Shown one piece after another: positions 46,908 to 61,005 of a DNA stretch of 64,000 bases. The position numbers and the translations under genes were made by a program. Source of the stretch: an uncultured Enterobacterales bacterium (lineage in GTDB: Bacteria; Myxococcota_A; UBA796; JAFGLY01); the NCBI GenBank assembly GCA_964512185.1, contig CAZEJJ010000010.1, positions 291 to 64,290 on the forward strand, in the 5' to 3' direction. The stretch's first letter is position 1; every line of letters begins with the position of its first letter. Under the pieces are notes generated by a model. It ran no database searches. It was not told the origin of the DNA and saw nothing but the letters and a program-made list of their open reading frames with translations.

Positions 46908-48434
46908 GTGACCCGAAAGAGCATCGTCGAACGCAGCCTCGCGCTGGCCATCGGGCTGGTGGTGCTGCTGGTCCTGCTGGAGCTGACGCTCCGGCTCGCC
47001 GGCAGCTTCTTCGACGATCCAGCTCAACGGCTGCCCACCGAATTCCAGCCCAAGCCTGGAGATCTCGTGGTGCTGTCCATGGGCGACTCCATGACCTGGG
47101 GCATCGGAGCCTCAGAGGGCATGACCTACCCGGATCAGCTGCAGCCGCTGCTGGAGCAGGCGCTGTCCGACCGGGGGATCGCGGTGTTCAACGGCTCCAT
47201 GGCGGGCGCCAACTCCACCATCATTCTGGCCCTGCTGGAGGACTACCTGCGCGTGCTTGAGCCGGACGTGGTCACCATCCTCACCGGGGGGATCAACAAG
47301 ACCAACTACTACGGCTTCAACGCCTGGAAGAAGCGCAGCACCACACCTTCGCGGGCGGACGACGCCCTGCACCAGGTGCGGGTCTACCGCCTGTGGCGGT
47401 ACTTCTCCCGACACATGGGCACCCACTCCGCGCAGCAGGCCCTGGTCTTCGACGGCGTCGGCGCGGGTGTCACCGCCTGCCAGAAGTGGCACTCCGCCCA
47501 GGGCTCCCCTCCGACCCGGAGCTTCGAACAGGGCGGCAGCCTGCTGCGCGTGGGCCGCTTCCACCAGGCGCGACAGGTCTTCGAGCAGGGGCTCGCAGAG
47601 GATCCCGGCGACAGCGCCCTGCTGTGGGGGCTGGCCACGGCCCACAAGGGCGCCAGGAACAACGCCGCCGCCGAGGTGACCTTCGAGCGCTGCCTGCAGG
47701 CGAATCCCGCGGATCCCAACTGCCACTACGGGCTGGGCGAGCTCTCCCTGGAGGGCGCCCCCCGGGGGCCGGGCAGCTCCCCTGAGCTGGACGCAGCCGA
47801 GACCTGGTTCGAGAGCGGGCTGAAGGCCGACCCCGCGTTCTCGGCCAACCACTGGGGCATGGGCATGGTCCACATGAAGACCAACCGCAGCTCGGACGCG
47901 GTGGACGCCTTCCTCCAGTGCGCCCGCGCCGATCCCGACGACACGCGCTGCTACCCGAACCTCGTCACCCAGGCGGGCCGCAGCAAGCGCAGCGCCGAGG
48001 TGGAGCGCATCCTGGAGACCATGGCCGCCGAGCACCAGGTGGCCGACGACTACCTGCCCGCGCTGCGCGCCAGGCTGGACACCGACTCCATCGATGCCTG
48101 GATCCGAGCTGACCTGGAGCGCATGGTGGAGCTCTCCCAGGCATCAGGCGCCAAGGTCATCATGCAGACCTACCCCTACCAGGAGCCCACCAACGAGCTG
48201 CTGGGGGCCATCGCTCGCGAACAGGGCCTGCCCTTCGCCGATCACCGGGCCCGGTTCCTCCAGGAGATGGAGGCGGGCGTAGCCTACGATGATCTGTTCT
48301 CCGCCGATCAGCTTCACTGCAACGACCGGGGCTACGGGATCATGGCGGCCACCCTGCGCGACGCCATCCTGGGCACGCTGCAGGCCAAACCCGGCGCGGG
48401 TGGCGGACAGGGCCCCGTTCGGTCCAGGTACTGA
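46908..48434 (+). CDS. Membrane-anchored SGNH/GDSL hydrolase with an embedded TPR-like module
   Basis: GTG start; TM anchor; block I SMGDSMTWG, block III GGINKTN, block V DQLHCNDRGY; about 250-aa helical-repeat insertion between blocks III and V. Confidence 0.75.
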   Translation: MTRKSIVERSLALAIGLVVLLVLLELTLRLAGSFFDDPAQRLPTEFQPKPGDLVVLSMGDSMTWGIGASEGMTYPDQLQPLLEQALSDRGIAVFNGSMAGANSTIILALLEDYLRVLEPDVVTILTGGINKTNYYGFNAWKKRSTTPSRADDALHQVRVYRLWRYFSRHMGTHSAQQALVFDGVGAGVTACQKWHSAQGSPPTRSFEQGGSLLRVGRFHQARQVFEQGLAEDPGDSALLWGLATAHKGARNNAAAEVTFERCLQANPADPNCHYGLGELSLEGAPRGPGSSPELDAAETWFESGLKADPAFSANHWGMGMVHMKTNRSSDAVDAFLQCARADPDDTRCYPNLVTQAGRSKRSAEVERILETMAAEHQVADDYLPALRARLDTDSIDAWIRADLERMVELSQASGAKVIMQTYPYQEPTNELLGAIAREQGLPFADHRARFLQEMEAGVAYDDLFSADQLHCNDRGYGIMAATLRDAILGTLQAKPGAGGGQGPVRSRY

Positions 48435-48442
48435 GGTCGGTC

Positions 48443-49933
48443 GTGGCCCGGAAGAGCATGCTCGAGCGCGGCCTGGCCCTCGCCCTGGGCCTGCTGCTCA
48501 CGCTGGGCATGATCGAGCTGGGCCTGCGCCTGGCGGGCAGCCTCTACGACGATCCTGCCCAGGCCGTCCCCGGCGAGTACCTGCCCCGGCCAGGGCAGCA
48601 GGTGTTCCTCTCGATGGGCGACTCCATGACCTGGGGTGTGGGCGCCTCTCGAGGCATGGCCTACCCCGACCAGCTCCAGGCCCTGATGGCCTCCGAGGCT
48701 CCGACGCAGGACGTCGCCATGTTCAACGGCTCCATGGCCGGGGCCAACACCGCGATGGTGCTGGCCCTGCTGCAGGACTTCCTCGAGGTGCTCGATCCCG
48801 ACGTGGTCCTCATCCTCGTCGGCGGCAACAACGAGACCAACTACTACGGCTACAACGCCTGGAAGCGGCGCAGCCCTGCCTGGGTCCGGCTCGACGACTC
48901 CCTGCGCGGGATTCGAGTCCTGCGGCTGGCGCGCTACCTCTCCCGCCAGCTGCGCGCGCGCTCCGTTGAGCAGCCCCGGATCCTCGATGGTGTGGGAGCC
49001 GGCGTGGCCGCCTGCGCCGCCTGGCACGAAGCCCAGGGCCGCACCATCGGTGTAGCCTTCCGGCAGGGAGCCAGGCTGCTGGAGCTCAACCGCTTCGAGC
49101 TGGCCCGGGAGCACTTCCAGGTAGCCGTCGAGCTGGCACCCGATGACACCTCCCTGTACTGGGGTCTGGCGACAGCCCACAAGGGCCTGCGGGACAAGGG
49201 TCGGGCGTCCATGGCCTTTCGCCGCTGCCTGCATGTGGATCCCAGGGATCCCAGCTGCCACTACGGGCTCGGCGAGCTCGTGCTGGAGGGAGCGCCGCGG
49301 GAGGCCGGCAGCTCACCCCAGCTCGACGCTGCCCGCACCCGGTTCCAACAGGGGGTGGAGGCCGATCCGTCCTTCGCAGCCAACCACTGGGGGCTGGGCA
49401 TGGTGCACATGAAGACCAACAAGGCTCCCGAGGCGGTGAGAGCCTTCCTGCGCTGCATCGAGGCTGATCCCGATGACGCGCGCTGCTACCCCAACCTGCT
49501 CATCCAGGGGGAGATGAGCGGGGAACAGGCCCGTGTCGAGGCCGTGTTGGCGGCGCTGGCCGAACAGCACCAGGTGGCCGACGACTACCTCCACGCGCTG
49601 CAGCTGCAGCAGGACCCGGGCTCCGTCGAGCAGTGGATCCTGGCCGACCTGAGGCGCATGACCCAGCTCTCGCGGGCCGCCGGCGCCCAGGTGATCCTGC
49701 AGACCTATCCCTACGAGAACCCATCCAATGAGCTGGTGCGGAGTGTCGCCTTGGAGCTGGACCTGCCGCTGGCCGACCACCGCTCTCGCTTCCTGCAGGA
49801 GCTGGACTACGGCGTCTCCTACGAGGATCTCTTCTCTGCCGATCGAAGGCACTGCAACGACCGCGGCTACGCGCTCATGGCGGCCACGCTGCGCGACACC
49901 CTCCTCGCGCACGCCACCGCGGGGGGTGGATGA
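48443..49933 (+). CDS. Membrane-anchored SGNH/GDSL hydrolase with embedded TPR-like module (tandem paralog)
   Basis: Collinear with 46908-48434 over full length (SMGDSMTWG, GGNNETN, DRRHCNDRGY). Confidence 0.75.
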   Translation: MARKSMLERGLALALGLLLTLGMIELGLRLAGSLYDDPAQAVPGEYLPRPGQQVFLSMGDSMTWGVGASRGMAYPDQLQALMASEAPTQDVAMFNGSMAGANTAMVLALLQDFLEVLDPDVVLILVGGNNETNYYGYNAWKRRSPAWVRLDDSLRGIRVLRLARYLSRQLRARSVEQPRILDGVGAGVAACAAWHEAQGRTIGVAFRQGARLLELNRFELAREHFQVAVELAPDDTSLYWGLATAHKGLRDKGRASMAFRRCLHVDPRDPSCHYGLGELVLEGAPREAGSSPQLDAARTRFQQGVEADPSFAANHWGLGMVHMKTNKAPEAVRAFLRCIEADPDDARCYPNLLIQGEMSGEQARVEAVLAALAEQHQVADDYLHALQLQQDPGSVEQWILADLRRMTQLSRAAGAQVILQTYPYENPSNELVRSVALELDLPLADHRSRFLQELDYGVSYEDLFSADRRHCNDRGYALMAATLRDTLLAHATAGGG

Positions 49934-50084
49934 TGGTGGCTGAGCCTGGTCGGACCTGCCGGGCGGCCAGGCGGGAACGCGGGCGTGATACACTCCTCGC
50001 CGCCCCGAGGTTCCCTGGCGGGAACGGCATCAGCAGGAGACTCCGCTGCAGCTACCCGGATTCATCTCGCGAACCTACGAGCGG

Positions 50085-50291
50085 GTGAAGGCCGTCGGCC
50101 GGCGGGTGCAGGCCGTGGTGGTCACCGTCAACCTGTACCTGCTCTACGTCTTCGGCATCGGCAGCGCGCGGCTGTACGCCAGGCTCTTCCACCGCAGGCT
50201 GCTGCAGAGCCGGCAGGATCCCGCTGGGAGCTACTGGCGCGAACTGCCCCCGGTGACCTTTGACAGGAACGAATCCCTGCGCCAGAGTTAG
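50085..50291 (+). CDS. Small single-TM protein resembling the C-terminal half of SxtJ-family proteins
   Basis: GTG start; 68 aa; TM AVVVTVNLYLLYVFGIG then RLFHRRLL...DPAGSYWRE; position upstream of DUF5989 and carbamoyltransferase as in sxtJ-sxtK-sxtI type trios. Confidence 0.45.
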   Translation: MKAVGRRVQAVVVTVNLYLLYVFGIGSARLYARLFHRRLLQSRQDPAGSYWRELPPVTFDRNESLRQS

Positions 50292-50309
50292 CAGATTCGG
50301 AGGCCAACC

Positions 50310-50471
50310 ATGCGGAAACTCGCCCTGATCCTGAAGGAGATGTTTCGCCTGATCGGCAGGAACAAGCTCTATTTCCTAGCCCCAATCCTCATCAGCCTGG
50401 CCATCCTCGCCTTCCTCGTGTACACGCTGGGGCCCGTGGCCATGGTCACCTTCCTGTACGCGGGCATCTGA
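50310..50471 (+). CDS. DUF5989 (SxtK-like) small membrane protein; below the ORF-track length cutoff
   Basis: ATG 50310 8 nt after GGAGG; MRKLALILKEMFRLIGRNKLYFLAPILISLAILAFLVYTLGPVAMVTFLYAGI; stop TGA overlaps the carbamoyltransferase ATG (TGATG). Confidence 0.75.
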   Translation: MRKLALILKEMFRLIGRNKLYFLAPILISLAILAFLVYTLGPVAMVTFLYAGI

Positions 50472-52159
50472 TGAACGTCCTCGGGCTGTCGTGCTACTAC
50501 CACGACGCCGCCGCTTGCCTGGTCCAGGACGGGCGCATCACCGCCGCCGCCCAGGAAGAGCGCTTCGATCGGGTCAAGGCCTCGGCCGAGTTCCCCGAGA
50601 ACGCCATCAACTTCTGCCTGCAGCGGGCTGGCATGACCATCGATGACGTCGATGCCATCGCCTTCTACGAAAAACCCTTCCTCAAGCTCGAGCGGCTGAT
50701 AATCAGCCACCTGCGCGCCTGGCCCCGCTCCCGTGCCACCTTCCTGCGGACCATCCCTCCCTGGCTGCAGGACCGCCTGATCGTCCCGCTCACCCTCCGC
50801 AAGCAGCTGGCGTACGACGGCGAGGTGCACTTCGTCCCCCACCACCTCTCCCACGCAGCCAGCTCCTTTCTGGCCTCGCCCTTCGACGAAGCCGCCGTGC
50901 TCACCGCCGATGGTGTAGGCGAGTGGGCCACCACCACCCTGGGGCAGGGCAGCGGCACCCAGCTGCAGCTCATCGCAGAGCTGCGCTACCCGCATTCCCT
51001 GGGCCTGCTCTACACCGCCGCCACCACCTGGCTGGGCTTTCGAGCGCTGCGGGGTGAGGGCAAGGTCATGGCCCTGGCCGACTTCGGACAGCCGCGCCTG
51101 CTGGAGCAGTTCCAGCGCCACATCGCCGTCGCCGACGACGGGAGCTTTCAGGTCGACCCGGCCTTCCTCTCGGTGGTGGAAGGCGACCGCATGTACGGGC
51201 CGGCCTTCCTGTCAGCCTTCGGCGAGCCCCGCGCGCCGGGGAGCGAGCTCACCGACCACCACCGCGACGTGGCCGCCAGCCTGCAGCGCCTCCTCGAGCT
51301 GGTCATGGAGCGCATGTGCCGGCATCTGCACGAGCGCACGGGGCACACCAGGCTCTGCCTCGCCGGAGGCGTGTGCCTGAACATCACCGCCACCTCCCGG
51401 GTCATGGAGCGCACCCCCTTCGAGCAGATCTTCATCCAGCCCGCGGCGGGCGACGCCGGGGGAGCGCTGGGCGCGGCGCTGTACCTCACCCACGCCCTGG
51501 GCACCGTGGAGCGGGGGCCGGCCATGGACTCGGCGGCGCTGGGCCCCTCCTTCTCCCCCGCGCAGCTCCGTCGAGCCCTCAAGACCCAGCGGGCCAGCTT
51601 CCGCGAGCTACCCGACGATCAGCTGGTGACCGAGGTTGCGCGCCGCATCGAGCAGGACCAGGTGGTGGGCTGGTTCCAGGGGCGCATGGAGTTCGGACCC
51701 CGAGCCCTGGGACAGCGCAGCATCCTGGCCAACCCCTGCAGTCCCCACATGAAGACGCAGCTCAACGCCAAGGTCAAGCACCGCGAGGAGTTCCGGCCCT
51801 ACGGCGTGAGCGTGCTGCTGGAGCGCGCGGCGGAGTTCTTCCACAGCGACCATCCCTCGCCCTACATGCTCCAGGTGGCCCAGGTCAGGCGGGCCATGGC
51901 CGAGCGGATCCCCGGCGCCCTGCACGTCAACGGCAGCTCGCGGCTGCAGACCATCACCCGCGAGCACAATGGCCTGTACTACGATCTGGTGCAGGCCTTC
52001 GCAGCTCGTACAGGTGTGCCCATGGTCATCAACACCTCCTTCAACGACAACAACGAGCCCATCGTCTGCACGCCGTTGGACGCCTGGCGCTGCTTCCAAG
52101 GCACCCAGATGGACAGCCTGGTGCTCGGCAATCTCCTGGTGGACAAGGCCTCCGCCTGA
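50471..52159 (+). CDS. Carbamoyltransferase, NodU/CmcH family
   Basis: MNVLGLSCYYHDAAACLVQDGRI...AAQEERF, HHLSHAASSF, INTSFN. Confidence 0.9.
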   Translation: MNVLGLSCYYHDAAACLVQDGRITAAAQEERFDRVKASAEFPENAINFCLQRAGMTIDDVDAIAFYEKPFLKLERLIISHLRAWPRSRATFLRTIPPWLQDRLIVPLTLRKQLAYDGEVHFVPHHLSHAASSFLASPFDEAAVLTADGVGEWATTTLGQGSGTQLQLIAELRYPHSLGLLYTAATTWLGFRALRGEGKVMALADFGQPRLLEQFQRHIAVADDGSFQVDPAFLSVVEGDRMYGPAFLSAFGEPRAPGSELTDHHRDVAASLQRLLELVMERMCRHLHERTGHTRLCLAGGVCLNITATSRVMERTPFEQIFIQPAAGDAGGALGAALYLTHALGTVERGPAMDSAALGPSFSPAQLRRALKTQRASFRELPDDQLVTEVARRIEQDQVVGWFQGRMEFGPRALGQRSILANPCSPHMKTQLNAKVKHREEFRPYGVSVLLERAAEFFHSDHPSPYMLQVAQVRRAMAERIPGALHVNGSSRLQTITREHNGLYYDLVQAFAARTGVPMVINTSFNDNNEPIVCTPLDAWRCFQGTQMDSLVLGNLLVDKASA

Positions 52160-52184
52160 TCCCCCCTGCCCCGAGAAACCCGCG

Positions 52185-53339
52185 ATGGCTCCCGAGCGTA
52201 TCTCCGAGGTCTACCTGGACAACGCGGCCTCCACCGCGCTGGATCCAGCGGTGGCCACGGCCATGGCGCCCTTCCTCCAGCGGCGCCCCGGCAACGCCTC
52301 CGCCGTCCATCGCCCCGGGGTGCTGGCCGCCAGGGGCGTGGAGCGGGCCCGGGCCATCGTAGCCCGTCGCCTGAACGTCCAGGCGTCCCGGATCTTCTTC
52401 ACCAGCGGCGGCACCGAGTCCAACAACCTGGCCATCCAGGGGGTGGCGCGGGCCCTCGCCGAGCGCCGTGGCCGCCACCTGGTGAGCTCCCGCGTGGAGC
52501 ACTCCAGCGTCTCGGAGCCGCTGCGCTGGCTGGAGCGCCAGGGCTTCGAGCTGAGCTGGCTCGAGGTGGACTCCTCAGGCCGCGTCTGCCCCGCCGCCGT
52601 GGCGCGCGCGCTCCGCCCCGACACCGCGCTGTTGTCCCTGATCCACGGCAACAACGAGATCGGCACCTTGCAGCCCGTCGCCGCCATCGGCGCCCTCTGT
52701 CGCCAGGCCGGCGTGCTGTTTCACGTGGACGCCTGCCAGAGCTTCACCCGCGAGCCCATGGATCTGCGGGCGCTGCCCATCGACCTGCTGAGCGTCAACG
52801 CCCACAAGCTGCACGGGCCCAAGGGCGTGGGAGCCCTCTATGTTCGCAGCGGTGTCGAGCTCGAGCCGCTGTGCCACGGCGGGGGCCAGGAGCAGGGGCT
52901 GCGCCCGGGCACCCTCAACACGCCAGGGATCGTAGGCTTCGGCGAGGCCGTGCTGCAGGCACAGCCCGAGCAGAACCAGGCCGTGCGGGCCCAGCGGGAC
53001 TGGTTCGCCGAGCGGCTGCTGCACAGCGTCCCCGACGCGCAGATCAATGGCCACCCCACCGAGCACCTCTGCCACGTGCTGAGCGCCACGCTGCCCTCCA
53101 TCGATGGCAAGACGCTCTTCCTCGAGCTGAACCGGCGCGGCATCCACGCCTCGCTGGGCTCCGCCTGCTCCTCCGCGGCCACCACTCCCAGCCACGTGCT
53201 CTCCGCCATCGGGCTGTCTCCCCAGCAGGCCAGGCGCACCCTCCGGTTCAGCCTGAGCCGCTGGACCACACGCGCCCACATGCAGTATGTTCTAGACAAT
53301 ATCCTCGAAATCCTGCAGTCCAGTGAAGACCTCATTTGA
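52185..53339 (+). CDS. Cysteine desulfurase (NifS/IscS-like, class V aminotransferase)
   Basis: YLDNAAST, TSGGTESNN, SVNAHKLHGPKG (PLP Lys), SLGSACSS (active-site Cys). Confidence 0.88.
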   Translation: MAPERISEVYLDNAASTALDPAVATAMAPFLQRRPGNASAVHRPGVLAARGVERARAIVARRLNVQASRIFFTSGGTESNNLAIQGVARALAERRGRHLVSSRVEHSSVSEPLRWLERQGFELSWLEVDSSGRVCPAAVARALRPDTALLSLIHGNNEIGTLQPVAAIGALCRQAGVLFHVDACQSFTREPMDLRALPIDLLSVNAHKLHGPKGVGALYVRSGVELEPLCHGGGQEQGLRPGTLNTPGIVGFGEAVLQAQPEQNQAVRAQRDWFAERLLHSVPDAQINGHPTEHLCHVLSATLPSIDGKTLFLELNRRGIHASLGSACSSAATTPSHVLSAIGLSPQQARRTLRFSLSRWTTRAHMQYVLDNILEILQSSEDLI

Positions 53340-53596
53340 CCAGCCACGCGACCGATCAAGACCCCGGCGGGCCTGAGCTGCTGGACCTCTCCGGCGTCCC
53401 CTGCCCGCAGAACACAGCCATGGCGCTGCTGCAGCTGGAGCTCATGGACGAGGGGGAGCAGCTGGAGCTGCTGCTGGACGACGGCGAGCCCATCGAGAAC
53501 CTGCCCCCCAGCCTGGAGCTCGAGCACCACAAGATCGTGTCGGCGGGCCGAGTCGGCGCCCAGTGGCGGCTGCTGGTGGAGAGAGGCGAGGACTGA
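53336..53596 (+). CDS. TusA/SirA-like sulfur-carrier protein
   Basis: TTG start overlapping desulfurase stop; LDLSGVPCPQN (Cys in the TusA CPxP position), ...LELLLDDGEPIENLP... Confidence 0.6.
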   Translation: MTSHATDQDPGGPELLDLSGVPCPQNTAMALLQLELMDEGEQLELLLDDGEPIENLPPSLELEHHKIVSAGRVGAQWRLLVERGED

Positions 53597-54618
53597 TGTT
53601 CCAGGCTCGCACCTGCAGCCGCTGCGTCATGCCCGAGCGGCCCCCCGCCATCCTGCTGGACCAGCAGGGGGTCTGCAGCCTCTGCCTCAAGCACGATCAG
53701 GTGCAGGCTGCTGCCGGGCGCACCCGCGGCCACCTGGAGACGGATTTCGTGCGCCTGCTCAAGAAGCACCGCGGCAAGGGGGACTACGACGCCCTGGTTA
53801 TGTGCAGCGGCGGCAAGGACAGCACCTCCGCCCTGCTGTACATGGTGCGGCGTTACAAGCTCCGGGTGCTGGCGTTCACCTTCGACCACGGCTTCGAGAC
53901 CGACGAGGCCCTGGACAACGTGCATCGCGCGGTGGAGAAGCTCGACGTGGACTTCATGACCTTCCGCTCCACCTGGATGAACGACATGTTCGCTCGCATC
54001 CTGGAGACGGGCTCCCAGGCGGTCATCTGCCACCTGTGCTCCATCTGGTACATGGATCTCACCTTCAAGATCGCGGCGCGCTTCCGCATCCCCATCATCA
54101 TCGCCGGCTGGACCAAGGGGCAGTCCACCGATCACGAGGTGATGTCCAAGTGCGCCTGCAACATCACCGCCCCCGAGTTCAAGGCCATGGGCGAGGCCAC
54201 CATCGAGTTCCTGAACTCTCTCAAGGGCGATCCCAAGTACGATGACTTCCCGCGCAGCATGGAAGAGGTGCTGCGGCGAGCCAAGAAGCGCTTCAAGTCC
54301 GTGGTGCTCTCCCCTCATTGGTTCCTGCCCATCGAGGTAGACGAGTACGTGCAGACCATCATGCGCGAGCTGGACTGGGACTACCCGCGGCTGTCCTACC
54401 CAGCCCAGTCCACCAACTGTGCCCTGAACTTCATCTCCGTCTACAACTCCATGCGGTACTACGGCTACACGCACTACCACGTGGAGATGAGCAAGCAGAT
54501 CCGCGCCGGCATCATGACCCGCGAAGAGGCGCTGGAGCTGCTGCGCATCGACTTCGACGAGACCCTGCTCAACGAGATCGCCCGCCCCCTGGGCTACACG
54601 TTTCAGCCCACCGGGTGA
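53596..54618 (+). CDS. PP-loop ATP pyrophosphatase of the N-acetyl-sugar amidotransferase (WbpG/PseA-like) type
   Basis: ATG overlaps TusA-like stop; N-terminal CSRCVMPERPPAILLDQQGVCSLC zinc-ribbon pattern; PP-loop VMCSGGKDST; CHLC; C-terminal MTREEALELL. Confidence 0.75.
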   Translation: MFQARTCSRCVMPERPPAILLDQQGVCSLCLKHDQVQAAAGRTRGHLETDFVRLLKKHRGKGDYDALVMCSGGKDSTSALLYMVRRYKLRVLAFTFDHGFETDEALDNVHRAVEKLDVDFMTFRSTWMNDMFARILETGSQAVICHLCSIWYMDLTFKIAARFRIPIIIAGWTKGQSTDHEVMSKCACNITAPEFKAMGEATIEFLNSLKGDPKYDDFPRSMEEVLRRAKKRFKSVVLSPHWFLPIEVDEYVQTIMRELDWDYPRLSYPAQSTNCALNFISVYNSMRYYGYTHYHVEMSKQIRAGIMTREEALELLRIDFDETLLNEIARPLGYTFQPTG

Positions 54619-54621
54619 GCT

Positions 54622-54969
54622 TCAGAAGTCCACGTCCGGATCCTTCCAGGCCAGCCAGCCGCGGGCCTTCATGGTCTGCAGGAACACCGCCAACCTCACG
54701 TGCTCAGGATCGAAGTCTTCGCCGAAGCGCTCGCCGATGAGGGTGGCGATCTGACGCACCGTGTGCTCACCGTCGCAGAGCTGCCACACCAGGCTGCCCA
54801 CCTCGTCGAGCTTCACGTGGTTGTGGCCGCTCTCCAGCCCCTTGGCCAGCAGCTTGCCGATCCACCCCTCGGCCGCGCGTGACTCCAGCACGGTGACGCG
54901 CTCGTGCTCGCCCTGCTCGGAGTGCACCAGGCGCACAGGTACGAGGGTGGAGAGGTCCTCGGGATTCAT
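54622..54969 (-). CDS. PqqD-family (RRE-like) small protein
   Basis: 115 aa; KLDEVGSLVWQLCDGEHTVRQIATLIGERFG...VFLQTMKARGWL. Confidence 0.7.
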   Translation of the reverse strand: MNPEDLSTLVPVRLVHSEQGEHERVTVLESRAAEGWIGKLLAKGLESGHNHVKLDEVGSLVWQLCDGEHTVRQIATLIGERFGEDFDPEHVRLAVFLQTMKARGWLAWKDPDVDF

Positions 54970-57272: not shown

Positions 57273-59231
57273 TCAGTTCTTGAGCAGGAACAGGGCGAAG
57301 AGCAGGACCACGGCCACCACCGCCGCGCCGATCATGAACATGGCCCAGGCATCGCCTCGCACCATGTCGAGCAGCTGGCCCCAGGGGGACCTGGGCGCGA
57401 ACTCGTCCAGGTCATCGTAGTCATCGCCCAGGTCGGTGAGATCGTCGTGACCTTGCTCGGAGAGGGGGAGATCGGTCCAGGACCCGGAGGCGGAGAGCCC
57501 AGCGGGTTCCGGCTCCTCGTGGAGCTGCGGCTCGGGCCGAGACAGGGCGGCAGGTTCGGGGACGGGCTCCGGCTGGGCCGCGGCCGCAGCAGAGAGATCG
57601 GGTGCGGGCGAGAGATCGGGCCGGGGGGCGGGCTGCCGCGAGCGCTCCGGGGCCACCCGCGGCTGCTCCATGGGCACCGCTGTGTCGGCCTGGGACGCAG
57701 GCTGTGTGCCTCCACCGAAGCTCACAGTGCTGGCGCGTGTGACCCAGGTGTCGGCGCTCGGGGTGCCGGCCTGCTCCGGACGCGGCTCCGCCACGGTGGG
57801 TGCTGGTTCCTGGGGGAGCTGCTGCGGCGTGGGCTCAGGAGGCGGAGGAGGGGCCGGGCTGGGCGGCTCGGGGAGCTGCGCCAGGGGCTCGGTGGCGACG
57901 CGCGCTTCGCCGGGCTCTTCAGGGATGGGCAGCGCCGCGGACGGGGGCCGCTCCGGGGGCGGGATGTAGCCGTGGGCAGCGCGGATCTCCAGCTCCGCTT
58001 CCTTGACGGTGGGCTCACGCCCCGAGTCGCGGATGGCGAAGGCTGCTCGCAGCCTGTAGTTGCCCGGTCGCAGATCGGAGAGCTCGAACTGGAAGCGGAA
58101 GCGCCCGGACGGATGACGGCTGACGTCGTAGGTGCTGGGGACCTCGCGCACACGCTCGGCGGTGTCGCGATCGAAGATGGCGACCCCGCAGGCGATCTCC
58201 TCGTGGCTGTCCACTCCCGCACTGCAGCCGACGCTGATGGTGTACCGGACCTTCTCGTCGGTGCTGAAGTGGCTGCTGTTGGGCGGGCGTTCTAGGATCA
58301 CCCTGCCCACCGTGACCACCTCGGGGCGCACCAGCGAGAGCAGCTCTTCGAGCCGAGGGACCAGCTCGTCGTGACGGTTGAAGCGATAGGGAGGCGAGGG
58401 GCTGGCCTTGAGCGAGGCTGCGCGGGAGATGGTGGCGGCGAGCCTCTCGGCCAGCCGGCCGTGGAAGCGCGGGTTGGAGTCTTCCTGCTTGATGCGGGCG
58501 TGCAGGCGGTCCTTCAAGCTGACCAGCGCCGCGCGCTCGAGACCCTCGCGCGGCAGGGGCCGGGCGTCCTCGAAGCCCAGGACGATCCGCCAGAGCATCA
58601 TGCCCAGGGCGTAGGTGTCGGCGGTGGGCGAGAACAGGGCGTCCTTTGCGTCGGTGGTCTCGGGAGGCAGGTAGCAGTGCTCGGGACCCCTGGCCTGGAG
58701 CAGGCGCGGGAAGGTCCGTCGAAGGCTGGGCGTGCTCACATCGGAGAGCACCACGCCGCCATCGGCGTCGAGCAGCACGTTGGTGGGTTTGAGAGCCCCG
58801 TGGCAGCCGGGACCGTCCTTGAGCTGCTGGCAGAGACGGCCCGCCTGGGCCAGCACGGACAGGCAATCGCGCAGGCTCGCACCGCCCGCCATGCTCTGCT
58901 CGAGGCTGCCGGGCAGACGCTCCAGCAGCATGACCATGCCACCATCGCTGGTGGTGAAGTGGCTGACGACGGTGGGCAGGAAGGGGTAGGCTCGCTCGGC
59001 GAGGAATTCCGCCTGCTCCACCAGGATCTCGCGGCAGGCCTTCTCCAGCTTGTCGGCTTCGGACAGGCCGGCGGGCAGATCGTCGATGGTGAGGGGACAC
59101 TTGAGGAGCAGGTCACCCGGCAGGTGATCGCACTGGACGCGGTAGGTCTTGCCCCACAGGCCGCGTCCCAGCAGCAGGCCCACCTTGTACGCTCTCTCCT
59201 GCTCGTCATAGACGATGTCGCCAGTCTTCAT
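57273..59231 (-). CDS. Tail-anchored Ser/Thr protein-kinase-like protein, predicted pseudokinase
   Basis: Kinase fold (GRGLWGKTY, LLLK, ...LKPTNVLL, SDV) but catalytic loop reads HGALKPTN instead of HRDLKPxN; Pro-rich region; C-terminal TM MFMIGAAVVAVVLLFALFLL. Confidence 0.75.
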   Translation of the reverse strand: MKTGDIVYDEQERAYKVGLLLGRGLWGKTYRVQCDHLPGDLLLKCPLTIDDLPAGLSEADKLEKACREILVEQAEFLAERAYPFLPTVVSHFTTSDGGMVMLLERLPGSLEQSMAGGASLRDCLSVLAQAGRLCQQLKDGPGCHGALKPTNVLLDADGGVVLSDVSTPSLRRTFPRLLQARGPEHCYLPPETTDAKDALFSPTADTYALGMMLWRIVLGFEDARPLPREGLERAALVSLKDRLHARIKQEDSNPRFHGRLAERLAATISRAASLKASPSPPYRFNRHDELVPRLEELLSLVRPEVVTVGRVILERPPNSSHFSTDEKVRYTISVGCSAGVDSHEEIACGVAIFDRDTAERVREVPSTYDVSRHPSGRFRFQFELSDLRPGNYRLRAAFAIRDSGREPTVKEAELEIRAAHGYIPPPERPPSAALPIPEEPGEARVATEPLAQLPEPPSPAPPPPPEPTPQQLPQEPAPTVAEPRPEQAGTPSADTWVTRASTVSFGGGTQPASQADTAVPMEQPRVAPERSRQPAPRPDLSPAPDLSAAAAAQPEPVPEPAALSRPEPQLHEEPEPAGLSASGSWTDLPLSEQGHDDLTDLGDDYDDLDEFAPRSPWGQLLDMVRGDAWAMFMIGAAVVAVVLLFALFLLKN

Positions 59232-59313: not shown

Positions 59314-61005
59314 GTGACCCGTCCCCACGACGCGCCGCACGCGGATCTGGACAGCTTCCGGCTGTCTCGCTGGGGGAATCCCGCCTACCGCCTCCTTCGA
59401 GGGGCCCACGAAGGGCTGGTCAGGCGCTTCGAACGCGCGGTACGGGACCCTGAGCGGGCCCAACGCGCCTTGCTGGATCGCATCCTGCGCGGCAGCCGCG
59501 CGACGGCCAGGGCTCGCGACCTGGGGCTCGCCGCCGTGCGCAGCTACGAGGATCTCCGCCAGCGCCTGCCCCTGGTGGGCTACGAGCAGCTGTCGCCCTA
59601 TGTCCAGCGGATCGAGGCCGGCGAAGCAAGGGTGCTCACCCGGGAGCCGGTGGTCCAGCTCCTGCAGACCAGCGGCACCACAGGGGCTGCCAAGCTGATC
59701 CCCGTCACCGCGTCCTGGGCCCGCGGGGTGTCGGAGGCCCAGAAGATCTGGCTTCTGGGCCTGCTTCGCGAGCACGAAGGTCTGGCGCAGGGTGCCGCCT
59801 TGACCCTCGTCTCTCCAGCGCAAGAGCGGCTGAGCCGCGGTGGCATCCCCATCGGCAGCAACACGGGGCGCATGCACCTGGCCCAGCCCTGGTGGGTTCG
59901 TCGCCGCTACCCTGTGCCCTACGAGGTCTACACGCTCCCGGACCCGGAGCTGCGGCTGTACGCCATCCTGCGCTTCGCGCTGCAGGCGCCCCTGCGCTCC
60001 ATCACCACGGCCAATCCCACCACCGTGCTGCTCATCGCCCGCAAGCTGCGCGAGCACGCCGACGCGCTGGCCTGCGACCTCAGGGCGGGCTCCCTCCAGC
60101 ACGGCCCCGCCCGCGCCCTCGATCCGGTCCTGCGCCGGCAGCTCGCTGGGCAGCTGCGGCGTGTCCAGCCTCCCCAGGACTGGCGCCCCGCGCGGATCTG
60201 GCCCCTCGAGGTGATCAACTGCTGGAAGGGGGGCCTGGCCGCCTGGTTCCTGCCGCTGCTCGGCGAGGCCCTGGGAGCGCCGGTGCCCGTGCGCGAGGTG
60301 GGCATCTCCGCCTCGGAGAGCTTCGTCGCCGTACCCCTGGCCAGCGGCTGGCCCGGCTGCGTGGCGTGGCCCCTGGGGGAGCTGTTGGAATTCGTCGCCG
60401 ACGACGGCTCCGTGCAGCCCCTCTGGCGGCTGGACATGGGCGCCGAGTACCGGCTTGTGGTGAGCGGCCGCCATGGCCTGCTTCGCTACGATCTCGGGGA
60501 CCGGCTGCGGGTCGTGGGCCGCTACCACGCCACCCCGGTCCTCAGCTTCCTGCGCCGCTCGGGCAGCGTCCTCTCCGCCACCGGGGAGAAGCTCACCGAG
60601 ACCCAGCTGCTGCTGGCCATGGAGCGCGTCTTCGAGCACCTGGGGCTGCCTCGCGCGCCCTTCACGCTGCGCCTGGTCATGGCCGAGACACCCTGGTACG
60701 AGCTGGCCACCGAGCACCAGGGCGACGCCGACCTCCTGGGTCGGGAGGTGGAGCGCGCGCTGCTAGAGGTCAACGTGGAGTACGCCTCCAAGAGGAGCAC
60801 GGGGCGACTCGGGCCCCTGCGCCCGCTGCGCCTGCCACCGGGCAGCTACCGGCAGCTGCGCAGGCAGCGCGTGGCCGCGGGAACCCCCGAGGGCCAGTAC
60901 AAGGACCCGGCCATGTGCCTGGACCAGGCCAGCTGGCAGGCGCTGATGGCCGCCGCGTCTACCCTGGATTCCGCCAGCGGAGCTGCAGGGTCCCCTCCAG
61001 GGTGA
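59314..61005 (+). CDS. GH3-family acyl-acid amido synthetase-like protein
   Basis: GTG start; ...LPLVGYEQLSPYVQRI..., QTSGTTGAAKLIPVT adenylation motif, ...GQYKDPAM. Confidence 0.75.
   Translation: MTRPHDAPHADLDSFRLSRWGNPAYRLLRGAHEGLVRRFERAVRDPERAQRALLDRILRGSRATARARDLGLAAVRSYEDLRQRLPLVGYEQLSPYVQRIEAGEARVLTREPVVQLLQTSGTTGAAKLIPVTASWARGVSEAQKIWLLGLLREHEGLAQGAALTLVSPAQERLSRGGIPIGSNTGRMHLAQPWWVRRRYPVPYEVYTLPDPELRLYAILRFALQAPLRSITTANPTTVLLIARKLREHADALACDLRAGSLQHGPARALDPVLRRQLAGQLRRVQPPQDWRPARIWPLEVINCWKGGLAAWFLPLLGEALGAPVPVREVGISASESFVAVPLASGWPGCVAWPLGELLEFVADDGSVQPLWRLDMGAEYRLVVSGRHGLLRYDLGDRLRVVGRYHATPVLSFLRRSGSVLSATGEKLTETQLLLAMERVFEHLGLPRAPFTLRLVMAETPWYELATEHQGDADLLGREVERALLEVNVEYASKRSTGRLGPLRPLRLPPGSYRQLRRQRVAAGTPEGQYKDPAMCLDQASWQALMAAASTLDSASGAAGSPPG

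Follow-up and report, generated by a model that had tools for sequence, protein, structure and literature searches.

A conserved gene cluster joining an sxtIJKL-type carbamoylation cassette to a candidate NifS-TusA-PP-loop sulfur-insertion module

The DNA analysed here, a 64,000-nt window of contig CAZEJJ010000010.1 from an uncultured bacterium, carries a gene cluster in which an O-carbamoylation cassette resembling the sxtIJKL genes of the saxitoxin pathway stands directly before genes for a cysteine desulfurase, a TusA-family sulfur carrier and a PP-loop enzyme of an uncharacterised family (Table 1). Coordinates are positions in this window, whose GC content is about 70% throughout. The last six genes of the table had been listed in an initial annotation made from the sequence; an open reading frame (ORF) scan, public gene calls and our reading of the sequence confirm them together with their coordinates and overlapping junctions. 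The public gene calls, made on identical contigs of marine metagenomic origin, agree on the six products, whose lengths are 68, 53, 562, 384, 86 and 340 amino acids (aa). As read from the sequence, the DUF5989 stop overlaps the carbamoyltransferase ATG (TGATG at 50469-50473), and a GGAGG lies 6 nt upstream of the DUF5989 ATG. A gap of 25 nt (52160-52184) leads to the desulfurase gene, whose TGA stop at 53337-53339 is overlapped by the TTG start of TusA at 53336, and the TusA stop overlaps in turn the ATG of the PP-loop gene (TGATG at 53594-53598). The two membrane-anchored GDSL/SGNH proteins with inserted TPR repeats (SGNH-TPR) that precede these genes were missed initially; they fall into one de novo cluster, and the translation of the first shows a hydrophobic N-terminal anchor, a GDS motif and a DxxH motif. 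Between 46700 and 55200 no riboswitch or leader was recognised, no Rfam match being better than E 0.19. Scans for promoters (0 candidate sites) and terminators (2 candidate sites) did not exceed shuffled sequences and are uninformative at 70% GC.

Table 1. Genes of the cluster, the evidence for each assignment and the number of sampled PP-loop loci in which each family occurs.
Feature	Position	Strand	Evidence	Occurrence in PP-loop loci
GDSL/SGNH esterase or acyltransferase, membrane-anchored, inserted TPR (paralogue 1; SxtL position)	46908..48434	+	Pfam Lipase_GDSL_2 and TPR families	43/80 (SGNH-TPR)
GDSL/SGNH-TPR protein, membrane-anchored (paralogue 2)	48443..49933	+	Pfam Lipase_GDSL_2 (E 1.3e-12) and TPR families	43/80 (SGNH-TPR)
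Short SxtJ-like membrane protein, 68 aa as called	50085..50291	+	Family conservation; no Pfam/NCBIfam match	50/80
Small membrane DUF5989 protein, 53 aa, like SxtK in size and position	50310..50471	+	PF19451 29.7 bits (cut-off 27)	56/80
NodU/CmcH/TobZ-type O-carbamoyltransferase, 562 aa	50471..52159	+	Carbam_trans_N 244 bits (E 4e-72); Carbam_trans_C 228 bits (E 6e-68)	54/80
NifS/IscS-type class V cysteine desulfurase, 384 aa	52185..53339	+	Aminotran_5 241 bits (E 2e-71)	38/80; never without TusA
TusA-family sulfur carrier, 86 aa	53336..53596	+	PF01206 51.8 bits (cut-off 28.6)	61/80
PP-loop (AANH) enzyme, uncharacterised family, 340 aa	53596..54618	+	TIGR03573 150.7 bits (cut-off 203.2), end to end	

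Is this arrangement peculiar to one genome, as the initial annotation implied in describing a fusion of two modules into one operon? It is instead a seven-family cluster found across phyla. Homologues of the PP-loop protein number 1062 at E <= 1e-5; the best 120 of them are 60-100% identical over their full length and come, where the source is named, from very different phyla; between phyla the family retains 58-86% identity. We sampled 80 loci with a PP-loop homologue, one genome per species (81 including the window). Each locus spans up to 8 kb on either side of the PP-loop gene, and many contigs end sooner. Every ORF was clustered de novo and unlabelled, and the union counts in Table 1 combine detection by hidden Markov model (HMM) with tblastn. 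Only seven families recur around the PP-loop genes (PP-loop, TusA, carbamoyltransferase, DUF5989, the 68-aa SxtJ-like protein, desulfurase and GDSL/SGNH-TPR); the next-best family occurs in 8 loci, and no further conserved partner was found around the PP-loop loci. The window SGNH-TPR genes at 46908-49933 are members of this cluster. In 36 loci the DNA extends 6 kb or more to either side; 28 of these (78%) have the carbamoyltransferase, 27 have TusA and 18 have NifS, and a single one has neither carbamoyltransferase nor TusA. The association of NifS and TusA with the PP-loop gene, seen initially in one genome, is thereby upheld. In 46 loci TusA immediately precedes the PP-loop gene, the gaps running from -116 to +36 nt, and is thus never more than 36 nt away when adjacent.

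Gene order is shuffled while the set is kept, in at least 10 phyla. Writing N for NifS, T for TusA, P for PP-loop, s for SxtJ-like, d for DUF5989, C for carbamoyltransferase and G for SGNH-TPR, the orders seen include N-T-P-s-d-C-G, s-d-T-P-C, P-s-d-C-G, a divergent C<d<s<T<P>N and N-T-P alone. Retention of the set despite a shuffled order argues for functional linkage rather than for shared ancestry of one operon. The host metagenome-assembled genomes (MAGs) include some assigned to Myxococcota, Elusimicrobia, Omnitrophota, Bacteroidota, Planctomycetota, Bdellovibrionota, Patescibacteria, Gemmatimonadota and Desulfobacterota.

To which family does the PP-loop protein belong? The initial annotation saw in it the architecture of the N-acetyl sugar amidotransferases (NASATs) of the WbpG/PseA type. 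That architecture, CxxC-N-CxxC plus SGGKDS, is indeed present, but membership of the family does not hold. TIGR03573 (WbuX) is the sole model that matches the protein end to end, and the match lies below the cut-off of 203.2: the window protein scores 150.7 and its relatives P0075 and P0100 score 165.3 and 180.1, against 282.7 and 228.6 for two canonical NASATs. In an alignment of 28 members, later extended to 85, the N-terminal zinc-ribbon Cys4 (C7xxC10...C27xxC30) is kept in 84 of the 85, and the PP-loop reads S71GGKDS76. NASATs are recognised by a PP-loop SGGxDS together with an N-terminal CxxC...[GN]xCxxC zinc motif (PMC10607449), both of which the window protein possesses. Its AlphaFold model has a pLDDT (predicted local distance difference test) of 88.5, with a low-confidence loop at residues 171-190 that carries C186xC188. 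Foldseek against the PDB ranks the Legionella N-acetyl sugar amidotransferase 8wex first, at a TM (template modelling) score of about 0.6 and 17% identity, followed by the sulfur insertases TtuA, [4Fe-4S] LarE and YcfA. By profile search of the PDB, the match to NASAT is limited to residues 15-101 and 282-330, the middle being divergent. An exhaustive profile search found the family to be essentially one representative at 50% identity (571 bits); beyond it lie graded relatives, many of which are domains within proteins of 900-5400 aa. Public annotations of the enzyme read 'QueC', 'TilS/MesJ' or 'hypothetical'.

Does the enzyme then act as WbuX, PseA and LpNASAT do? It would in that case adenylate an N-acetyl or carbamoyl carbonyl and introduce free ammonia there to give an amidine- or guanidine-type product, and NifS and TusA would serve cofactor maturation or be unrelated. 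Likeness to the NASATs (TIGR03573; WbuX, PseA, WbpG, LpNASAT; 8wex) extends over the best-matching solved fold, the zinc tetracysteine, the SGGKDS loop, the only end-to-end HMM match and a probable glycan-related setting. The NASAT cluster of a Limimaricola plasmid also holds a gene for a 'carbamoyltransferase N-terminal domain-containing protein' (L083, 7708-8355), so ordinary glycan clusters, too, bring together PP-loop enzymes of the amidotransferase type with carbamoyltransferases. We nevertheless consider an amidotransferase quite unlikely. Canonical NASATs pair with HisH/HisF-like genes, the Limimaricola enzyme being encoded in a polysaccharide cluster immediately behind hisH and a hisF-like gene, whereas the window family pairs with TusA and NifS, TusA being translationally coupled to the enzyme in the 46 loci noted above. 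The absence of nitrogen-donor partners, remarked on initially for the window, extends to the 81 PP-loop loci, among which no HisH, HisF or GATase family recurs. All three family members scored fall below the TIGR03573 cut-off that true NASATs exceed, and the canonical NASATs compared (annotated, from plasmids) lack C70, C145, C148, C186, C188 and C275. TusA is, moreover, not known to act as an Fe-S assembly factor, which also weighs against this alternative.

These cysteines are the hallmark of the window family. C145xxC148 and C275 form a triad in which each residue is invariant in 85 of 85 members, and the family-specific C70, C186 and C188 are each kept in 81 of 85. In hhalign, C145xxC148 aligns on C122xxC125 of E. 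coli TtcA (local match, probability 78%), two cysteines that serve as cluster ligands in that enzyme. A second point of comparison is CtaC, the thiotemplate-linked, Fe-S-containing AANH thioamide synthetase of closthioamide biosynthesis, whose ATP-site residues are D77 and S78, whose cluster-binding C154, C157 and C284 have been found by mutagenesis to be important and which is said to carry the TtcA/TtuA cluster-binding motif (PMC6772006). When published residue numbers are compared, D75/S76 of the window protein correspond to D77/S78 and C145, C148 and C275 to C154, C157 and C284; the spacing from second to third cysteine is 127 residues in both. The two proteins are of similar size, and the chemistry proposed is the same, replacement of an amide carbonyl oxygen by sulfur via an adenylate. 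The CtaC mutagenesis-primer fragments VMLSGGKDS, DCSQLCFFCGRLL and ISSGCKLGKPY offer a compatible motif context, though the text drops repeated letters and the comparison is not a test. A reading of the enzyme as a sulfur insertase gains from this triad, since it is absent in canonical amidotransferases and matches the CtaC Fe-S ligands in position and spacing (PMC6772006). C145, C148 and C275 most likely bind an Fe-S cluster, to judge from conservation and alignment.

The likeness to CtaC has limits. CtaC acts on carrier-protein-tethered peptides, whereas no acyl carrier protein (ACP), peptidyl carrier protein (PCP) or nonribosomal peptide synthetase (NRPS) family recurs around the 80 window-family homologues. 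In the window family, moreover, the enzyme comes coupled with NifS and TusA and has C70 and the C186xC188 loop as additional features. The cta cluster encodes no sulfur-mobilising enzyme, and the native donor of CtaC is unknown (PMC6772006). Distant thiotemplate-linked homologues, to which the window protein is about 25-27% identical, keep the CxxC, a C275-equivalent 'STNC' motif and a GxxxGQ motif; triad-bearing examples lie beside an ACP (Bacillus thuringiensis plasmid) or inside NRPS proteins (Roseovarius, Streptomyces). The family profile scores two NRPS/ACP-linked homologues at 131 and 126 bits and two canonical NASATs at 95 and 80. By profile score, the PP-loop protein is slightly nearer to the thiotemplate-associated homologues than to the canonical NASATs.

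Two of the more distant PP-loop genes deserve separate mention. On the Bacillus thuringiensis HD1002 plasmid NZ_CP009349.1, at about 324-337 kb (L085), a triad-bearing gene annotated 'QueC' has the gene of an acyl carrier protein on one side and, on the other, genes for two adenylate-forming enzymes, more carrier proteins, a ketosynthase and a thioesterase; from its gene content this looks like an unrecognised CtaC-like pathway to a thiotemplated thioamide. In an Elusimicrobia MAG, which contains the full cluster as well, another PP-loop paralogue (L023, 1711-2850, reverse strand; TIGR03573 201.7 bits, slightly below the cut-off) is encoded beside an SGNH-TPR gene and a carbamoyltransferase gene; this paralogue has the CxxC and the distal cysteine and lacks C70 and C186/C188.

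A PP-loop followed by CxxC some 70-75 residues on is a feature of TtcA, TtuA and Ncs6 as well, and TtuA also has a zinc-finger N-terminus. Could NifS, TusA and the PP-loop enzyme form a new-family module for the thiolation of tRNA or rRNA, their proximity to the cassette reflecting shared regulation or co-transfer rather than a shared substrate? MnmA-type thiolation of tRNA canonically runs through NifS or IscS together with TusA. The very high conservation across phyla would suit an RNA substrate, as would the occurrence, in several genomes, of NifS-TusA-PP-loop alone in housekeeping surroundings and the alignment of the CxxC with the TtcA Fe-S ligands. The enzyme differs from TtcA, TtuA and Ncs6, however, in the spacing of the third cysteine, and those enzymes draw on TtuB thiocarboxylate or IscS-derived sulfide and act on tRNA. 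Family-level sequence matches are also lacking. The protein is no member of the TtcA/TtuA families, so that one of the checks named in the initial annotation leaves its reading standing: Pfam and NCBIfam TtcA and TtuA models do not match the window protein, E. coli TtcA is not detected by the PP-loop family HMM, and TtuA reaches E 0.3-0.37 over the PP-loop only in the PDB profile search. Models of MnmA and ThiI likewise give nothing above noise, ThiI reaching 21 bits over the PP-loop only. The protein has no THUMP, PUA or other RNA-binding domain and a pI of 7.1; its nearest relatives are NRPS/ACP-associated enzymes and sugar amidotransferases; and the carbamoyltransferase cassette accompanies it, in shuffled orders, in 78% of the well-flanked loci. 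We regard RNA thiolation as unlikely.

YcfA and LarE, both among the fold matches, offer a different parallel in that a PP-loop enzyme adenylates a carbonyl or carboxyl group and sulfur replaces oxygen. They are much smaller, single-domain proteins with no zinc ribbon and no TusA, and their substrates are a purine nucleotide and a nicotinic-acid mononucleotide derivative, respectively. In 6-thioguanine synthesis by YcfA/YcfC, YcfA has a dedicated sulfur-mobilising partner that depends on pyridoxal phosphate (PLP). The initial annotation knew of no described pathway with the present gene set, and we too found no paper describing the gene combination or the PP-loop family; O-to-S exchange by a PP-loop enzyme with a dedicated sulfur-mobilising enzyme, though, has precedents, for which CtaC and YcfA may be named.

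The two sulfur-handling proteins have kept the residues that such a role calls for. The desulfurase scores 401 bits with the NifS model TIGR03402 and 369 bits with the DndA-type model, missing the NifS, DndA and IscS equivalog cut-offs alike. Of 41 cluster members, 40 keep its PLP lysine (NAHK) and 39 its active-site cysteine (GSACSS), and the TusA cysteine, in a CPxN motif, is at least 90% conserved (57 cluster members). Dnd/Ssp phosphorothioation or another defence function was considered and rejected: the PADLOC SspA/DndA models match the desulfurase only, leaving the PP-loop gene and the others without a match.

What does the other half of the cluster do? The carbamoyltransferase combines a Kae1-like N-terminal domain with a YrdC-like C-terminal domain and matches the solved GdmN (E 2e-96), NovN and TobZ (E 2e-89) over its full length, and the DUF5989 family ends in an invariant F(I/L)YAG motif. 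In the saxitoxin cluster, sxtI, assigned to carbamoylation, is accompanied by sxtJ (405 bp) and sxtK (165 bp), both of unknown function, and by sxtL (PMC2679770). SxtL is a relative of GDSL lipases and has a proposed role in decarbamoylation, and SxtJ and SxtK are functionally uncharacterised (PMC2885083). The window shows the same four-gene content: an O-carbamoyltransferase, a small SxtJ-like membrane protein, an SxtK/DUF5989 protein of about 54 aa and a GDSL-family enzyme, the likeness of the DUF5989 protein to SxtK being set by size (165 bp) and position rather than by alignment. Differences are also evident. The SxtJ-like form is short here (68-86 aa against about 135 aa), the GDSL proteins have an N-terminal anchor and inserted TPR repeats and occur in multiple copies, no other sxt genes are present, and the sulfur module is added. 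Our literature search for DUF5989, PF19451 and PF19588 found nothing relevant.

The SxtJ-like ORF is the one gene of the six whose initial identification is not confirmed by Pfam/NCBIfam, although remote homology to SxtJ emerges from HMM comparison. The 68-aa protein matches no Pfam/NCBIfam model, SxtJ PF19588 included, even at E <= 10, and PF19588 likewise finds none of 14 relatives. The family is conserved beside DUF5989 and the carbamoyltransferase, in the same position in 45-50 of the 81 loci. The protein contains a single hydrophobic segment, and its conserved tail includes W and a C-terminal RQS. The family HMM aligns to the C-terminal half of 120-150-aa carbamoyltransferase neighbours (E 1e-9 to 1e-5), one of which matches PF19588 at 56 bits; the two groups have in common a hydrophobic helix, S/T-Y-W and a C-terminal (K/R)Q(F/S). 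From these alignments the protein is best described as a short-form SxtJ homologue, by remote homology and not by Pfam membership. The frame is open from 49989, after a stop at 49986-49988, and its first canonical start is the GTG at 50085. Relatives carry about 12 extra N-terminal residues, and the upstream translation in the window (..FISRTYERVKAVGRRVQ) resembles their N-termini, so that the gene may use a non-canonical start or encode a shortened protein.

How closely is the cassette bound to the sulfur module? We took a reverse sample of 80 metagenomic loci centred on relatives of the window carbamoyltransferase. The SxtJ-like gene occurs in 40 of them, SGNH in 34 and DUF5989 in 30, against 6 with a PP-loop gene, 2 with NifS and 1 with TusA. 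The trio of SxtJ-like, DUF5989 and carbamoyltransferase genes proposed initially is therefore real, but it is an sxtIJKL-type cassette that occurs mostly without the sulfur module. Strong PP-loop matches (L086, L089, L090 and L091) are confined to loci whose carbamoyltransferase is most similar to that of the window; the carbamoyltransferase HMM scores are 845-951 in loci with a PP-loop gene and about 750 elsewhere. Weaker PP-loop matches adjoin carbamoyltransferases in L091, L095 and L115. The cassette is far commoner alone, and NifS-TusA-PP-loop is an accessory module on one carbamoyltransferase subclade. In this sample the cassette often lies amid genes connected with sugar nucleotides and glycosyl transfer, among them those for epimerases/dehydratases, DegT-type aminotransferases, glycosyltransferases and NeuB-like proteins.

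The domain make-up of the carbamoyltransferase recalls HypF, which shares the YrdC-like and Kae1-like domains, and a weak HypF_C_2 match is found. A HypF/HypE-like pathway would carbamoylate a thiol or persulfide of TusA or of the PP-loop enzyme, which, like QueC or HypE, would then dehydrate the group via an adenylate to a thiocyanate or cyano product for a metal site or for release. TusA offers the single conserved cysteine that this calls for, QueC is a weak but consistent match of the PP-loop domain, and the nitrile synthetase ArtA is among the fold matches. We think such a pathway very unlikely, however: dehydration needs no Fe-S-type cysteine triad, 16 loci pair the cassette with the PP-loop gene and have neither TusA nor NifS, the membrane proteins of the cassette and the extracytoplasmic-looking SGNH enzymes are given no role, and no hydrogenase or metal-cofactor genes recur around the loci.

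Taken together, we read the locus, at a probability of roughly 0.55, as one functional unit in which a carbamoylation cassette is served by a dedicated sulfur-insertion line whose Fe-S PP-loop enzyme replaces a carbonyl oxygen by sulfur. The first module (46908-52159) would be the sxtIJKL-type cassette, with a cytoplasmic TobZ/NodU-type O-carbamoyltransferase, two tiny membrane proteins and anchored GDSL/SGNH-TPR enzymes. In the second (52185-54618), the NifS-type desulfurase would take sulfur from cysteine as a persulfide, and TusA would carry the persulfide on its conserved cysteine to the PP-loop enzyme. There, C70 and/or the mobile C186/C188 loop would probably receive it and pass it to the open iron of a [4Fe-4S] cluster held, as in CtaC, TtuA and TtcA, by C145, C148 and C275. 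The enzyme would adenylate the substrate carbonyl oxygen (ATP to AMP and PPi) and substitute sulfur. Both the direction of sulfur flow and the O-to-S chemistry are what we infer from these parts. Each part belongs to a kind already known. The whole would be an Fe-S PP-loop sulfur insertase in the style of CtaC or TtuA that has its own supply from NifS and TusA and has been recruited to the cassette.

Several observations weigh against this interpretation. TusA, with or without NifS, accompanies the PP-loop gene in 23 of the 80 loci with no carbamoyltransferase within the region covered, among them 7 of the 36 well-flanked loci, and some of these TusA/PP-loop loci have housekeeping surroundings. 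Strict dependence on carbamoylation is therefore not established, and the enzyme may act on a non-carbamoylated substrate. Conversely, in 16 of the 80 loci the cassette accompanies the PP-loop gene while TusA and NifS are missing nearby. NifS could also serve only to build the Fe-S cluster of the PP-loop enzyme. Finally, 58-86% identity between phyla is well above what is usual for an enzyme that tailors specialised metabolites.

If a dedicated sulfur-insertion line does serve the cassette, what is its substrate? The subclade link, the surroundings of the wider cassette, which are sugar-related, its small membrane proteins and its membrane-anchored SGNH enzymes hint, weakly, at the molecule that the carbamoyltransferase cassette handles, a membrane-associated glycan or glycolipid. 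The carbonyl attacked could belong to the new carbamoyl group, with a thiocarbamate as the product, or to an N-acyl amide of that molecule, with a thioamide as the product. A literature search on thiocarbamates and carbamoyltransferase gene clusters found nothing relevant. The two closest characterised relatives attack amide carbonyls (a sugar N-acetyl group and a carrier-bound peptide bond), to which a carbamoyl group is chemically similar. As a tentative and rather doubtful proposal, the product may be a glycan or lipid of the cell envelope that bears an O-thiocarbamoyl group, formed by carbamoylation and then conversion of C=O to C=S, or alternatively a thioamide.

Why would this matter? 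An O-thiocarbamoyl group of the envelope would, if real, be a modification not yet described in biology, and a thiocarbamate or thioamide on a surface glycan would make a new class of envelope modification in many, mostly uncultured phyla, among them Omnitrophota, Elusimicrobia, Patescibacteria, Bdellovibrionota and Myxococcota. The enzyme would also be the first CtaC-like synthetase of the thioamide type with an identified, genetically coupled native sulfur donor, and the NifS-TusA pair is a candidate answer to the question left open for CtaC, namely what delivers sulfur to AANH enzymes of this type. The analysis defines an uncharacterised, tightly conserved PP-loop family with a testable prediction, that its members are Fe-S-dependent sulfur insertases. 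It also ties sulfur chemistry to a widespread and obscure sxtIJKL-type cassette, whose SxtJ and SxtK have been without an assigned role since 2008.

Other genes lie near the cluster in the window. A PqqD-family gene, of a kind that resembles the recognition elements of ribosomally synthesised and post-translationally modified peptides (RiPPs), converges on the PP-loop gene from the reverse strand (54622-54969; Pfam PqqD 44 bits), the two stops being 3 nt apart. A RiPP reading was rejected on finding no such gene in 80 related loci by tblastn and de novo clustering, and the gene is probably unrelated to the cluster. Farther on are a 652-aa kinase-like protein (57273-59231, reverse strand), whose C-terminal half is long, proline-rich and of low complexity and ends in a hydrophobic segment, and an adenylating enzyme of the GH3 family (acyl-acid amido synthetase type; 59314-61005, forward strand); neither gene is conserved near the cluster elsewhere.

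The sampled loci show variations on the cluster. Radical SAM genes of differing subfamilies, some with SPASM and some with B12-binding domains, make up 11 of 111 sampled neighbours and lie in the flanks of L015, L030, L033, L043, L052, L053, L065, L067 and L073. A NifS-TusA-PP-loop-SGNH string with 62% identity occurs on a 2980-bp contig labelled as a Thermoplasmatota archaeon (L037); on so short a contig the label may reflect a binning error rather than archaeal occurrence. Two tandem PP-loop genes of the family are present in L072, L074, L077 and L090, the second being about 53% identical to the window protein, and in L074 and L077 the TusA gene has been shifted beyond the carbamoyltransferase gene. 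The SGNH-TPR genes also form tandem arrays downstream of the cassette, with up to five paralogues (L169, 13588-21014; also L020 and L025), which suggests diversified substrate or position specificity.

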